A stretch of DNA of 63,990 bases, filler included, from Acidimicrobiia bacterium (lineage in GTDB: Bacteria > Actinomycetota > Acidimicrobiia > Spongiisociales > CAZKJJ01), in assembly GCA_046759765.1 (NCBI GenBank). It is 13 parts of 13 records of this genome, joined end to end, with 100 filler letters (N's around TTAATTAATTAA, not from the genome) between each part and the next. Parts side by side here need not be neighbours in the genome. Positions count along the whole stretch, not along the records: positions 55,294 to 59,994 come from JBHICV010000172.1; positions 60,095 to 63,990 come from JBHICV010000198.1; 11 more parts are not named here. One strand, written 5' to 3'. Of the stretch, positions 59,201 through 62,200 are shown one piece after another. Made by a program: the position numbers. How positions within the stretch are numbered: the first letter of the stretch is position 1; the number at the start of each line of letters is the position of its first letter.

Positions 59201-62200
59201 CCAATACTGGGAACAAGAGCCGACGACCCCCGCCAAATGTGTTGGGGGTCGTCGCATGTCAAGCATCGAGAGGGTCACCCCAGTAACGCGCACCACCCAC
59301 ATCATCAATCAGGCACATATGCGCTAGCTGAGGAAGGACCTGGCCCGGTCTGCTCGAGTGGGTGGGTCAGTGTCAGGTGCCTGCAATGGAGGCTTGAACG
59401 GACGCTGCTCGGTCATCAGCTGAGCCTCGGGGAACTTCAACCAGGCTGTACCCGGTTCGCTCATATGCGGATTCGAGCAGTCGGAGGAACTCGACCACGG
59501 CGGCAAACGGCATCTTGCGTTCGTCATCAGTCCGGTAGATCTCCTCCCAAGGCCGGGTGACCAGCACCTCGGGCTGGTACCGGTAAGTGGCTGCCGCCTC
59601 GATGCTTGGAGTCGGATCAATGCCGCCCCACTCTGCGTAGGTAATGCAATCGGGAACTCCACGATCAAAGATGACCGGACCCTCCAACCGCTGGGCTGTC
59701 TCGTAGTTCTCGATCGACTGTTGAAGCAGCAGCTCAACGAACCGCGACGGATTCCGGTCCCACGTACCGTCGCCGTCAATTGATCGCTGTTGGGCAAGTA
59801 TCTCTCGGGCTGGCTCAGGCACCCAGCGGACACCCGAAGTCAGGCTCTCCAGGAGTGCTGTCTTTCCAGTGCCGGGAGCACCGGTGAGGATATGGAAGCT
59901 CGCTCCCATGCGTATCTGTTGGTCGGAGCCGCTCATTCTGGCTGCCAAAGCCAAGTCCTCCAATCAGCCGGGCACTATCGAAGAGAACCATTCGNNNNNN
60001 NNNNNNNNNNNNNNNNNNNNNNNNNNNNNNNNNNNNNNTTAATTAATTAANNNNNNNNNNNNNNNNNNNNNNNNNNNNNNNNNNNNNNNNNNNNCTGGAT
60101 GCCTAGAGGCGCCCGCGTCCGAGAACCGCGATGACGACGCCGAACCACAAGAAGAGTTGGCCGAGGCCGTTGGTTGGCCTCTCTGTTTTGGTGATGCTGG
60201 CCGCGGCCTGCAGTCAGCTGGCAGGACCCGGGGCCTCGAGTACAGACCTCGCTAGACTCGCCGATATCGAGGCGGTGGACGAGCTGCGCGCTGCCTTTGT
60301 GCAGGACTCCGGCCGGCCCCGATTGCTGCTTCTCCTCTCTCCCACCTGATCGGTCTGCCGTCAGGGCGCCCGGTGGGTGCAACAGGAGATCCTTGACGCC
60401 AACCCAGAGGCCGACCTGGCCGTGTACGCGATCTGGATGCCGATGCTGTTCAGCGACGCTCGGTTCCGTTGGGATCCGGGCCTGCTGCCTGACAGCCGGG
60501 TAGTGCACTTCTGGGACGAGCGAAGGGTCACGGGGCAGTGGTTCGCGCAAGAGGTGCTCGGATATCGGGGGATCGCTTGGGACATCTTCTTCCTCTACGG
60601 TCCGGAGGCAGCGTGGGAGGCTACGCCGGAGCCTCTGGTAAGCCGCGGTTCGACCGTTATCGGCCGCCGGGATCAACTGCAGACCTCGATCCTTCCCCTG
60701 CTGGGATAGTTCGTGAAGCAGTGGGGCAAACGGCAGTCGACGCAGGGACTACAGGTAGCGCCGCAGACCTCGCAGCCGAGATCAGGGAGCGGATCAGCAG
60801 TCTTCCGCATCGCGACACGCCCTCCCTGCGCAGCGTGCGCCGCGAGTTCTCGAAGCGGCTCAAAGGTTCAGGGCCCCAGATGGTCCTGAGGCTGGCACGT
60901 CGCCTGCTCGACGGAGCGGACCACGACCGTCGCTTCATCGCATACGAACTGATCCAGTTTCACAAGGCCGCTCTCGAGAGCCTCCGGGAAGAGGAACTCG
61001 AGGAACTGGGCCGAGGGATCGATTCCTGGGGTGCGGTCGACACCTTTTCCGTCTATCTGGCGGGTCCGGCGTGGCGGGAGCATCAGCTGTCGGATGACGT
61101 CATCCTACGCTGGGCGGAGTCCTCCGATCGATGGTGGCGGAGAACTGCTCTCGTGAGCACAGTCGCCTTGAACTCCAAGGCCCGCGGTGGAGACGGCGAC
61201 GCGAGGCGAACGCTCCTGATCTGTCGACGCCTTGTCTCTGACCGCGACGACATGGTGGTCAAGGCAATGTCGTGGGCGTTGCGCGAGCTGGCGAAGCGCG
61301 ACCCCGGCGCGGTCGTGGACTTCCTCGCGGAACACGAAACCTCCCTGGCCGCTCGGGTGAATCGCGAGGTCAGGAACAAACTCGAGACTGGCCTCAAAAA
61401 CCCGAAGAAACGCTAGCGGCCCGATCCCGACGCGATTCGTGAGCCTGGCGCAGCCCGTCTTCCGGCGGGAGCGCCGCGGGGCCATGTCTGTTATCTTGAG
61501 GGGCGATCAATCCCCACACGCAACGCGACGAGCGATCGGCTCGGAGTGAGAAGAAAGCTTCCATGTACAAGAGGTCCCTAGGGAACTTCCTGACCAACCT
61601 TGACCAGCCGATGCCGCTGGGTGAGAAGCTCTTCAAGCTCTCGCGCAATCTCGCCTTGCGGGTGGTCCTAAGACAGGGCTGCTGCGGCAACCACGGCGAG
61701 CCTGGGTGTTGACGGCTTGATTCACCGCCCGGGTCGGGTGGCCATCGTCATGAAGGCGAGTACCACAGCCACTGACGAATCGACTTGTTGAGTCCGCCCC
61801 GCCCGAGTCGCGAGGTTGAAGGGAGACAGGATGGGGGAAGAGCTACTAGGCAAGAAGTACGAGCTTGACAGCATAGACAAAGAGTTGGGGGACGACTTCT
61901 GGTCGCCCAAGGACGTGGCCCACTTCAACGACTGGGTGCTCCGGGCCAGCGCGGTCAAGGGCGAGTACCAGTGGCATAAGCACGAAGCCGACGAGTTCTT
62001 TCTCATCTACAGGGGGGAAATCGTCATCGACACTGAAGATGGAAGCATTCCGCTTCGCGAGGGCGAGGGGACGGTTATCCCCAAAGGCGTCCGCCATCGG
62101 CCCCGAGCAGACGAGCGAGCCCTCGTCCTAGTCCTTGAACCGGCCAGCGTGAATCCTCTCGGCGACTGAGGCCCGATCGAATCAATCACCTTCTGACGTT

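Follow-up and report, generated by a model that had tools for sequence, protein, structure and literature searches.

A UGA-interrupted gene in a selenoprotein-rich Acidimicrobiia genome probably encodes a selenoprotein with a thioredoxin fold

A small gene split at a TGA codon

Does the in-frame TGA in a small gene at the end of the analysed DNA terminate its product, or is it read as selenocysteine (Sec)? The DNA, referred to here as the window, is a stretch of 63,990 nucleotides in which 13 contigs of an Acidimicrobiia genome (G000) are joined with runs of N between them. G000 is the genome of a vent bacterium. The recoding signals, fold, family and gene contexts of the locus were established by computation. 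The last piece of the window, 60095-63990, is contig C198. On its plus strand, 60131-60709 forms a single frame of 192 codons ending in TAG if its sole in-frame TGA, codon 73 at 60347-60349, is read as a residue. Translation table 11 splits this frame into 60131-60349 (72 aa) and 60377-60709 (110 aa, with a GTG start). The public protein collection holds only the 110-aa piece, as P0002, on a contig of 3896 bases. The gene was therefore called in truncated form, and the statement of the initial annotation that it was mis-called at the UGA is borne out. All of the 18 database homologues of 105-336 aa likewise start a few residues past the position of the TGA. The features of the locus are as follows.

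60131-60709, plus strand: whole gene, probably for a thioredoxin-fold lipoprotein with U73-S-V-C76 (open frame, orthologue matches on both sides of the TGA, AlphaFold)
60131-60211, plus strand: predicted signal peptide and lipobox L-A-A-C, with the Cys27 codon at 60209-60211 (translation)
60347-60349, plus strand: TGA, probably read as selenocysteine, U73 (TGA in 160 of 164 loci; N-end of helix 74-89)
60356-60358, plus strand: TGC, Cys76, second residue of UxxC (invariant column in alignment A2)
60366-60380, plus strand: SECIS-like hairpin GCGCCC-GGU-GGGUGC (RNAalifold consensus, covariation)
60377-60709, plus strand: standard-code fragment, 110 aa, GTG start (gene call, P0002)

The gene begins 36 nt from the start of the contig, and its upstream neighbour is lost. 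Genes for a DNA-alkylation-repair protein, a cupin and inositol monophosphatases lie downstream.

Conservation of the TGA codon

In 164 related loci, collected by motif scans that are biased to close relatives of the query, the codon at the U73 column was TGA in 160, TGC in two (L166 and L190) and TAA in one (L103), and the remaining locus was cut at this column. The more distant homologue L031 also has Cys (CPSC), and six loci carry a second TGA at the C76 column, giving UxxU. Across the break, alignment A2 shows no variation at P71, U73 or C76 and almost none at F56, R64, L68, S70 and T72, upstream of the TGA. The TGA is kept where coding is conserved on both of its sides, and Cys replaces it in some homologues.

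The database Sec forms of the family are C-terminal stubs, and the first protein search returned post-TGA stubs only. Among the best 150 representatives, 81 span the U column. An exhaustive profile search, in which 62 of 79 full-length representative domains had Cys at this column, led us to reject the idea of a nearly Sec-only family. At least seven switches between Sec and Cys were counted on a quick tree. W was found at the U column in P0028 and P0031, and G in P0027; these representatives appear to have been translated with a different code table.

A SECIS-like hairpin downstream of the TGA

About 19-22 nt downstream of the TGA there is a hairpin with an energy of −8.5 kcal/mol and a loop of CGGUG or GGU. 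The family consensus, obtained with RNAalifold from 137 distinct sequences, pairs 60366-60370 with 60376-60380 in a stem of 5 bp that closes a loop of 5 nt, in which G comes first. The bSECIS model has a loop of 3-9 nt, a stem of 4-16 bp, a spacing of 16-37 nt, a G within the first two loop positions and an energy of −7.5 kcal/mol or lower (PMC13188914, section 5), and the hairpin of the window gene lies within each of these ranges.

Of the alignment cells in the stem, 99.1% were paired, compared with 22-57% when the partners were slid. Both sides had changed in 25 cells; shuffling gave 3.8, and none of 500 shuffles reached the observed number. In pair 27-39, CG (101 sequences) alternates with UA (16), UG (11) and GC (seven), and all of these changes fall on synonymous third positions. 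The conserved stem has 5-6 bp only, and a conserved G-A-x-W-V peptide constrains most of the same letters; therefore, the independent evidence consists of the covarying pairs only. Over the genome, a bSECIS-type hairpin was found at 15 of 20 Sec-UGAs versus 11.5% of 600 stop-UGAs (Mann-Whitney p = 4.6e-8).

Predicted fold and location of the protein

The AlphaFold model of the whole protein has a pLDDT of 98-99 over residues 41-192 (90.3 overall). Its thioredoxin-type order of strands and helices, running from strand 43-45 to helix 177-191, is interrupted by the TGA, and both halves are required. In the model, U73 stands immediately before helix 74-89, at the predicted N-end of the active-site helix, where a redox pair would be placed. 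The best structural matches in VIA-align were DsbE, DsbF, the C-domain of DipZ and ResA (Z 12-13, rmsd 2.6-2.9 Å, 118-128 residues).

Profile searches assigned the protein to no family. There were no matches in Pfam at E values up to 1, and none in NCBIfam at E values up to 0.001, as had been reported for NCBIfam in the initial annotation. PF08534, PF00578, PF13905 and PF00085 were unmatched, and the Cys-type members P0023 and P0025 also lacked matches to thioredoxin family models. An hhalign comparison with the ResA-like protein of the same genome gave a probability of 1.5%, and a profile search of the PDB gave nothing relevant below E = 0.06. Sequence profiles thus do not assign the protein to a named thioredoxin family.

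The bacterial lipobox has the motif [LVI][ASTVI][GAS]C. The N-terminus of the window protein, inspected by eye and with a regular expression, contains K7, K8 and R12, a hydrophobic run and LVMLAAAC at residues 20-27. It thus carries a lipobox, as do four orthologues in the class. In 150 N-termini of the family, a lipobox was found in 44, another hydrophobic segment in 93 and neither in nine, and four lay outside the locus. Judging from its sequence, the window protein is probably exported and lipid-anchored on the outward side of the membrane.

Sec machinery and the reading of the TGA

SelA (416 bits; cut-off, 267.9), SelB (338; 242) and SelD (396; 125) of G000, all named in the initial annotation, scored above their curated cut-offs, and SelD is of the Sec type. 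No full tRNA-Sec was found in the assembly by ARAGORN with default settings, and two "SeC" candidates obtained with relaxed settings were rejected for their poor arms. The Rfam search for tRNA-Sec, in which 150 of 470 candidates were scored, gave at best 46.6 bits, below the 47-bit cut-off; with permissive E-values, the contigs carrying selA, selB and selD gave no relevant match. All four of the relatives that have an orthologue of the window gene possess a tRNA-Sec (60.8-71.7 bits), and the 17 nt at its 5' end are exactly those that close contig C114. It therefore looks as if selC was cut by the assembly at the end of C114. The initial annotation had not found the tRNA-Sec and had considered it probably unassembled; the lack of a full gene stands, but the gene is not simply missing, as its first 17 nt end C114. 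A Logan contig of run X1 extends 75 nt past this end, and the sum of 17 and 75, 92 nt, equals the length of the relatives' tRNA-Sec, the X1 extension having been compared by length alone.

The TGA might be a true stop, lying in a broken gene or between two small genes, so that only the 110-aa piece, or nothing, would be made. Gene callers yield exactly this split, L103 has TAA at the column and no full tRNA-Sec is assembled. We regard such a stop as highly improbable, however, because TGA is present in 160 of 164 loci from about ten phyla with the protein conserved on both sides, unlike in pseudogenes, because in-frame Cys forms are known and the hairpin covaries, and because the modelled fold appears to need residues from both sides of the TGA. 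Alternatively, a changed code or a suppressor tRNA could place Trp, Gly or Cys at the TGA, as the W and G in P0028, P0031 and P0027 might suggest. There is very little to be said for this, since TGA terminates nine of the 13 genes listed in the initial annotation, SelA, SelB and SelD are all encoded in the genome, the non-TGA forms have Cys (in 62 of the 79 domains above) and a SECIS-type hairpin then follows the TGA. We therefore hold with considerable confidence that the window gene encodes a selenoprotein with a thioredoxin fold. The Sec reading had been proposed in the initial annotation, and three results agree with it: the conservation of the TGA in 160 of 164 loci, the covarying hairpin and the fold spanning the TGA. 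SelB and tRNA-Sec would decode the UGA at 60347 as selenocysteine, with the hairpin at 60366-60380 as the directing signal.

Selenoprotein genes of the genome

The initial annotation had counted 17 selenoprotein genes with 19 TGA codons in G000, and all of them were found again. Its 13 listed coordinates translate as described, each with the quoted motif; for the DsrE-like gene on C8, the translation and motif hold, but the end given is 3 nt beyond the TGA stop. The count had been called a floor, and a DCC1-like gene now makes an 18th. In addition to the window gene, the set comprises the following.

C35:133-2028: FdhA; listed, translation agrees
C108:6276-7352, minus strand: SelD (GAG-U-ACK); listed, translation agrees
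C14:13733-13966, minus strand: SelW-like (CRA-U); listed, translation agrees
C260:183-851: redoxin (W-U-PFC); listed, translation agrees
C14:28173-28862, minus strand: redoxin (DW-U-PYC); listed, translation agrees
C93:5617-6231: ResA/TlpA-like lipoprotein (W-U-PIC); listed, translation agrees
C102:7369-8058, minus strand: TlpA-like (SW-U-RC); listed, translation agrees
C149:1307-1828, minus strand: AhpC/Prx (DY-U-TSE); listed, translation agrees
C42:9590-10579: DUF3179 (W-U-PLC); listed, translation agrees
C104:1657-2643 and C114:5683-6264, both minus strand: AhpD-like (CFY-U); listed, translations agree
C8:5092-5457: DsrE-like (FV-U-GPC); listed, translation agrees
C103:7531-8361: CcdA-like; found again
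C36:7200-8051, minus strand: rhodanese-CBS, two TGA; found again
C103:4300-5316, minus strand: rhodanese-CBS, two TGA; found again
C64:8036-8851: methyltransferase; found again
C6:3869-4156: DCC1-like UxxC gene, the 18th; confirmed here

The Sec reading of the listed genes is upheld by a Pfam domain that spans the TGA in 12 of the 12 that have a Pfam family. Selenoprotein-specific NCBIfam models also support it, scoring above cut-off for the SelW-like gene and for the AhpD-related and peroxidase-related ones. In same-order relatives, TGA was present in 30 of 31 matches of the ResA-like gene (in 29 of 40 sampled genomes, 28 of the 40 carrying TGA), eight of eight of the Prx gene, four of four close matches of the methyltransferase and three of four of the CcdA-like gene; DUF3179, which the initial annotation had not followed into relatives, had TGA in 12 of 14 matches. 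The frequency of TGA in the ResA-like gene indicates that Sec use is a trait of the lineage rather than a peculiarity of this single bin. For the C260 redoxin, 40 same-order genomes gave no orthologue, and just a Cys paralogue in G000 itself was found.

A genome-wide screen reduced 14,280 TGA-bridged frames to 71 that passed codon-score and local-frame filters, and looser score cut-offs combined with a motif filter (Cys near U, or a rhodanese-like motif) gave further candidates. When 38 new candidates were searched against Pfam, only the C64 methyltransferase had a domain across the TGA. The completeness of the screen is not proven: C8, C42, C102 and SelW were lost at the local filter, and the DCC1-like gene escaped the screen itself. 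Among other candidates, that on C17 was rejected as two genes, whose N-terminal and rhodanese parts match separately and lie 7 nt apart in G401, and those on C262 and C11 were each rejected as a Rieske gene adjoining a reductase gene. The C107 candidate has no family, and its upstream coding score is weak.

The count of 17-18 could be inflated if the bin were mixed and some of the contigs came from another genome. The assembly consists of 308 contigs with an estimated contamination of 2.42%, the selenoprotein genes are spread over many small contigs and the C260 gene lacks a same-order orthologue. Nevertheless, such inflation is unlikely, given the same-order TGA orthologues of the ResA-like, DUF3179, Prx, methyltransferase, CcdA-like and window genes, and the finding that paired genes are diverged paralogues rather than strain copies. 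We conclude that the selenoprotein genes of G000 number at least 17 or 18, and that public records probably annotate all of them wrongly.

Selenoprotein-rich bacteria have been described as mainly anaerobic Thermodesulfobacteriota, Clostridia and Synergistota, and aerobic bacteria seldom keep selenoproteins (PMC13188914, section 10, a 2026 review). "Rich" denotes organisms with at least six selenoprotein genes in PMC5029168, and about five per genome are given for Actinomarina (Actinomarinales, Actinomycetota) in a preprint (10.64898/2026.04.03.716425). The 17-18 genes in a 2.7-Mb Acidimicrobiia genome broaden this picture, and the window gene adds a thioredoxin-fold family for which Pfam and NCBIfam have no model.

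Family size and gene neighbours

The protein had been reported in only two of 120 related genomes, but it is not rare: relatives were found in 365 metagenome stretches, 86 species genomes and, for the wider family, at least 2,496 representative clusters. The family is spread over about ten phyla, and TGA-bearing orthologues of the window gene itself occur in three same-order genomes and one of the same class. It could have escaped catalogue screens whose starting point is annotated Cys proteins from named families.

Neighbours within 1.8 kb were counted at 162 loci. A MerR, MerA-like or MerB neighbour was present at 32 of these (MerR, 20; MerB, 15; MerA-like, 12), and a CopZ-N-terminal-like gene at 18. 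One MerA and one MerB neighbour exceeded NCBIfam cut-offs. At L121, from Kouleothrix aurantiaca, the gene adjoins MerR, MerB and MerA-like genes. A CcdA-like membrane gene was found near 23 of the 162 loci, upstream and on the same strand in 21; it gave no Pfam match above the cut-off, the best being DsbD_TM at E = 0.0046. According to their sequences, the Cys-type proteins P0047, P0053 and P0055 are fusions with a CcdA-like membrane domain, and P0021 (42.9 bits) and P0088 (58.2 bits) are fusions with an HMA domain (cut-off, 24.8). No conserved metal or CcdA context was seen in the same-order relatives of the window gene. Homologues of the CcdA-like neighbour in G000 lie mid-contig on C94 and C85 and cannot be linked with the beginning of C198. 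Because the upstream side is lost and the same-order relatives lack these contexts, the functional reading rests on more distant members.

Proposed function

The window protein is presumably an extracytoplasmic selenol/thiol oxidoreductase, possibly serving in metal defence. Its export, redox cycle, electron donor and substrate are proposed as follows. The product would adopt a fold of the TlpA/ResA/DsbE type in which the active-site helix begins with U73-x-x-C76. The selenolate would attack a substrate, which may be a disulfide, a peroxide or a thiophilic metal (Hg, Cu), and Cys76 would resolve the adduct to a selenenylsulfide. Re-reduction would come from the cytoplasm via a CcdA/DsbD-like membrane protein. 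The chances that the redox cycle is fed by CcdA are about even, and a role of the window copy in metal handling is somewhat doubtful.

The protein could instead be a selenol peroxidase of the GPx- or Prx-like kind for extracytoplasmic peroxide defence, rather than a CcdA-fed reductase or a metal handler. The structural matches include glutathione peroxidases, several other selenoproteins of G000 are of peroxiredoxin or AhpD types, and the close relatives have no metal context. This is rather unlikely, however: DsbE, DsbF, DipZ and ResA align with Z 12-13 versus about 11 for GPx, the motif is UxxC as in reductases and not the UxxT of GPx (PMC13188914, Table 1), and the CcdA-like neighbours and fusions suggest a reductive relay.

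For the family that includes this putative oxidoreductase, we tentatively suggest an undescribed, widespread group of exported thioredoxin-fold proteins with many Sec/Cys swaps, which might use a selenol or thiol for the extracytoplasmic capture or redox handling of Hg, organomercury or Cu and be fed by CcdA-like proteins. The links to MerR, MerA, MerB, HMA and CcdA give rise to the testable idea that selenium is used in metal defence. If this were true, the family would form, in soil and vent bacteria, a selenium arm of MerR/MerA/MerB systems of the canonical type.

Comparison with known systems

TlpA, ResA, CcmG (DsbE) and DsbF resemble the window protein in having a thioredoxin fold with extra elements and an active-site pair where the first long helix begins, in being membrane-anchored or lipoproteins on the extracytoplasmic side, and in structural alignment (VIA-align Z 11.3-12.9, rmsd 2.6-3.1 Å). 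The window protein differs from them in lacking profile membership and in probably having Sec for the first Cys, and its family has conserved motifs of its own, DxRVxHxWDE and WDxYxLYGPE.

DipZ of Mycobacterium tuberculosis acts as a reductant relay. In this protein, a CcdA-like membrane domain is fused to a thioredoxin-like domain (PDB 2hyx, 5cyy); its C-domain aligns with Z 12.1-12.2, and the Cys-type P0047, P0053 and P0055 share its layout, their CcdA-like part being N-terminal. The domain of the window gene, on the other hand, is stand-alone, appears to belong to a lipoprotein and probably bears Sec.

Catalogued thioredoxin-fold UxxC selenoproteins include Prx-like thiol:disulfide oxidoreductases (PF00578) and thiol:disulfide interchange (PF13098), redoxin (PF08534) and thiol-disulfide isomerase-like (cd02966, the TlpA-like family) proteins (PMC13188914, Table 1). 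The window family shares with them their class, motif and Cys/Sec pairs. The window protein matches none of the Pfam and NCBIfam models of that table, but may overlap with the cd02966 entry. SaoT (NF040730) is a thioredoxin-like UxxC selenoprotein in the same table and, according to the Haft and Gwadz preprint, adjoins the MerB-like lyase SaoL. NF040730 was unmatched by the window protein in the NCBIfam search (E up to 0.001). Both SaoT and the window family are thioredoxin-type UxxC selenoproteins that accompany organometal-lyase genes, whereas the neighbours of the window family are of the canonical MerB, MerA and MerR types, and its hosts belong mostly to soil and vent phyla with aerobic members rather than to the clostridia.

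A probable selenocysteine codon in a split gene of the window

The genome in question, G000 (2,726,369 bases in 308 contigs, 63% G+C, with completeness and contamination estimated at about 92% and 2.4%), contributes contig C198 as the last of the 13 pieces of the window, all contigs of this one assembly with N spacers between them. The upstream side of the window's gene is missing from this contig.

Features of the window on contig C198
60095-63990: contig C198
60131-60709, + strand: the window's gene, 192 codons with TGA as a residue, TAG stop
60347-60349, + strand: its sole in-frame TGA, codon 73
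60718-61413: DNA-alkylation-repair protein gene, downstream
61816-62166: cupin gene, downstream
62216-63061: inositol-monophosphatase-family gene 1 (domain scan)
about 63100-63873: inositol-monophosphatase-family gene 2, in tandem with gene 1 (from translation only)

Under the standard code, the gene falls into pieces of 72 and 110 codons, the second with a GTG start, and its entry in the public protein collection (P0002) consists of the 110-aa piece only. The sequence around the TGA is LLLSPT-U-SV-C, U being selenocysteine (Sec). By eye, the N-terminus contains K7, K8, R12, a hydrophobic run and LAAAC, which by the lipobox rule is read as a putative lipoprotein signal. No common gene context was seen around the orthologues in same-order relatives.

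Conservation of the TGA

Each of the 18 homologues of 105-336 aa in the database contained the post-TGA part only, starting at most a few residues from the TGA. DNA-level orthologues were detected in four of 400 sampled same-class genomes; each of the four had one TGA at the matching column, the conserved upstream sequence PRLILLLSPT-U and a lipobox. The corresponding site of a more remote homologue reads CPSC. In motif scans, 365 of 402 metagenome stretches and 86 of 113 species-genome stretches contained relatives, and the best 80 of the 365 and the best 80 of the 86 were examined. Across 164 loci, the U column was TGA in 160 (154 UxxC and 6 UxxU), TGC in two, TAA in one and cut in one. P71, U73 and C76 were invariant in a 99-row alignment. 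The frame of the TAA locus, the metagenome relative L103, is otherwise intact, and its TAA may reflect either decay to a pseudogene or an error in sequencing.

In the UxxU loci (L062, L073, L076, L082, L129 and L149), both residues of the active-site pair are encoded by TGA (SPT-U-P-T/V-U), and the loci with titled records are Chloroflexota and Dehalococcoidia MAGs. The hairpin described below is also present in them, just ~12 nt past the second TGA.

Putative SECIS hairpin

RNAalifold analysis of 137 distinct 57-nt stretches gave one helix, columns 26-30 with 36-40, located 19-33 nt past the U of UGA. Pairing was found in 99.1% of the cells of this helix, compared with 22-57% with a slid partner. 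Pair 27-39, which joins the third bases of one Gly and one Val codon, occurred as CG (101), UA (16), UG (11), GC (7) and other forms (2). Double-sided changes were counted in 25 cells versus 3.8 in shuffles, and none of 500 shuffles was as high; these shuffle figures are overstated because the sequences are related, a fault from which the slid-partner control is free. The hairpin of the window's gene, GCGCCC-GGU-GGGUGC (-8.5 kcal/mol, spacing 22 nt), satisfies the bacterial SECIS model published in section 5 of PMC13188914. When the model was strictly applied genome-wide, a hairpin of <= -7.5 kcal/mol followed 15 of 20 Sec-UGAs, compared with 11.5% in a set of 600 stop-UGAs taken from long frames (p = 4.6e-8).

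Fold and family of the window's protein

An AlphaFold model based on the 99-row alignment had a pLDDT of 90.3 overall and 98-99 at residues 41-192. The strand/helix order of the model is of the thioredoxin type from residue 43, and U73 stands immediately before helix 74-89; therefore, residues on either side of the TGA are required for the fold. The protein and its Cys-type relatives matched no Pfam or NCBIfam family. In structural comparison by VIA-align, the Z scores were 12.9 with DsbE (3gl3), 12.5 with DsbF (3ios), 12.2 with the DipZ C-domain (2hyx) and 11.9 with ResA, at an rmsd of 2.6-2.9 A over 118-128 residues, and Foldseek gave E near 1e-4. The model indicates that the protein is of the TlpA/ResA/DsbE-type thioredoxin fold, a relationship that was invisible to sequence profiles in the profile comparisons run.

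An exhaustive profile search yielded 2,496 representative clusters at E <= 0.001 and 1,179 at E <= 1e-10. The best 150 representatives comprised 69 stubs starting past the U column and 81 spanning it. In 79 full-length domains, this column was C in 62, T in 3, W in 2, S in 2, G in 1, L in 1 and unresolved in 8, so there are many Cys forms in the family. Only the clade nearest the window's protein is almost Sec-only. The Sec column is occupied by G, W or S in five full-length representatives (P0027, P0028, P0031, P0035 and P0042); the W and G residues look like the product of gene callers that read TGA with code tables 4 and 25.

A quick FastTree tree contained 164 rows (98 Sec, 63 Cys and 3 W or G), with 68 stubs and 14 domains having another or unresolved column residue left out. 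The Sec label required 23 changes on this tree, compared with a shuffled mean of 51.8, and at least 7 changes were forced by well-supported branches. Among 150 family loci, the N-terminus had a lipobox in 44, another hydrophobic segment in 93 and neither in 9, and lay outside the locus in 4. The thioredoxin-fold family that includes the window's gene is unnamed, and Sec and Cys have often replaced each other in it.

Sec machinery and tRNA-Sec

The initial annotation had reported SelA, SelB and SelD in the genome, and all three scored above curated cut-offs.

C220:27-1199, - strand: SelA, 416 bits (cut-off 267.9)
C155:151-1932, + strand: SelB, 338 bits (cut-off 242)
C108: SelD, Sec-type, 396 bits (cut-off 125)

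It had also described tRNA-Sec as not found and probably unassembled. No full tRNA-Sec gene was detected in the assembly by ARAGORN (default settings; poor hits only at relaxed ones) or Rfam (150 of 470 candidates scored), in agreement with that description, but a 5' fragment was found: the last 17 nt of C114 (8223-8239) are identical to the 5' end of the tRNA-Sec of the same-order genomes G007 and G150. A public contig of sequencing run X1 continues 75 nt past the end of C114; X1 is perhaps the source of the DNA and so is not independent. The sum, 92 nt, equals the length of the relatives' tRNA-Sec, an agreement in length only. All four relatives with an orthologue of the window's gene have a tRNA-Sec (60.8-71.7 bits). 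It is likely that selC is present in G000 but cut by the assembly. The runs in which the C114 stretch occurs come from a single study, carry the label hydrothermal vent metagenome and include the possible source of the DNA. In G150:C7 (L255), the tRNA-Sec gene lies ~5.4 kb upstream of the orthologue.

Selenoprotein genes of the genome

The count of 17 genes with 19 TGAs was reproduced from 13 genes with listed coordinates, each of which translated as the initial annotation had it, and four found again:

C103:7531-8361: CcdA-like gene, GFG-U-TGP
C36:7200-8051, - strand: rhodanese-CBS gene, VVVY-U-HDGL-U-D
C103:4300-5316, - strand: rhodanese-CBS gene, VVVY-U-HDGL-U-D
C64: methyltransferase, DVLC-U, domain (residues 59-155) across U134

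TGA also serves as an ordinary stop in G000, closing nine of the 13 listed genes. Pfam domains crossed the TGA in all 12 listed genes with a family. NCBIfam scores exceeded the cut-offs for AhpD_rel_CFYUT (292.8 bits, cut-off 175), peroxid_rel (119.8, cut-off 81.8), CXXU_selWTH (58.4, cut-off 34.2) and selD. The Fdh-alpha match of FdhA (C35:133-2028) starts only at profile position 51 and for this reason scored 650.3 bits, slightly under the cut-off of 666.25; this frame is without the N-terminal part of the profile.

In both rhodanese-CBS genes, the two TGAs are 15 nt apart and a single hairpin follows them, 19 nt past one and 34 nt past the other, both within the SECIS spacing range. Each of the two contigs also carries a CcdA-like gene: the one on C36 (8092-8910) is Cys-type, and that on C103 (7531-8361) is Sec-type.

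TGA in orthologues among 40 sampled same-order genomes
ResA-like lipoprotein beside ccm genes: 30 of 31 matches, in 29 of 40 genomes
DUF3179: 12 of 14 close orthologues, absent in 2 (11 of 13 without the unpublished genome G402)
Prx: 8 of 8 (7 of 7 without G402)
Methyltransferase: 4 of 4 close matches, 0 of 5 weaker matches
CcdA-like: 3 of 4 (2 of 3 without G402); Cys paralogue in G000
C260 redoxin: no orthologue at E <= 1e-25; one G000 Cys paralogue, 54% identity

Judging from the sequences of the ResA-like lipoprotein, Sec use seems to be general in the order.

The list had been regarded as a floor, and an 18th candidate outside it was indeed found: a DCC1-like (PF04134) UxxC gene at C6:3869-4156 (+ strand) with one TGA in YSGG-U-KFC (34.4 bits, cut-off 27.8). 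Two other proposed read-through candidates were rejected, C17 being two genes and C262, like a C11 candidate, a Rieske-plus-reductase pair. A genome-wide screen of G000 for TGA-bridged frames, of low sensitivity, gave nothing further. The observation and its Sec interpretation stand, with these corrections.

Gene context and putative role

Neighbours within 1.8 kb were surveyed at 162 loci of the family.

Neighbouring genes at 162 family loci
CcdA/DsbD-like membrane gene (NPCGF...LGCTLP motifs): 23, upstream and on the same strand in 21 of 23
MerR-type regulator: 20
CopZ-N-terminal-like metallochaperone: 18
MerB: 15
MerA-like reductase: 12
ArsR: 10
MerR, MerB or MerA combined: 32
Any metal-related or CcdA-like gene: 62

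One MerA neighbour scored 498 bits (cut-off 454) and one MerB neighbour 220.8 bits (cut-off 200). The MerR-type neighbours were under equivalog cut-offs, and the CcdA-like neighbour had no above-cut-off Pfam match. As read from the sequences, a CcdA-like membrane part is fused to the Cys-type members P0047, P0053 and P0055; HMA domains are fused to members P0021 and P0088. Other Cys-type domains (P0064, P0078 and P0162) occur in fusions to YceI-like domains and to a beta-lactamase-plus-PDZ protein.

From these family-wide neighbours and fusions, the window's protein is best read as a putative exported selenol/thiol oxidoreductase that would be re-reduced through a CcdA-like relay; we give such a CcdA-fed redox cycle an even chance. 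A putative link of the family to Hg or Cu is genuinely possible, plausible and open to test, and a metal-handling role of the window's own copy is a tentative and rather doubtful extension of it.

Comparison with known selenoproteins

A 2026 review (PMC13188914) counts 119 prokaryotic selenoprotein families. The window's protein did not match any Pfam or NCBIfam model given in Table 1 of that review. Its family possibly overlaps the "thiol-disulfide isomerase-like" entry (cd02966) listed there, being set apart by Pfam/NCBIfam models only. No printed description of the family was found among the literature listings searched. The methyltransferase-domain family MduS of the same review has CxxU and two Sec, whereas in the C64 gene there is a CU dipeptide with a single Sec, so its fit to MduS is uncertain. 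Families listed there include FdhA, SelD, SelW-like, Prx-like and redoxin types, DUF3179, AhpD-related NF041238, AhpD-like TIGR01926 and DsrE-like, all represented in G000, and the listed rhodanese forms include the UxxxxU motif of TsoB, which matches the G000 type. Most G000 selenoprotein genes fall in families of this catalogue. At the level of the genome, G000 is a well-supported further case of a known phenomenon.
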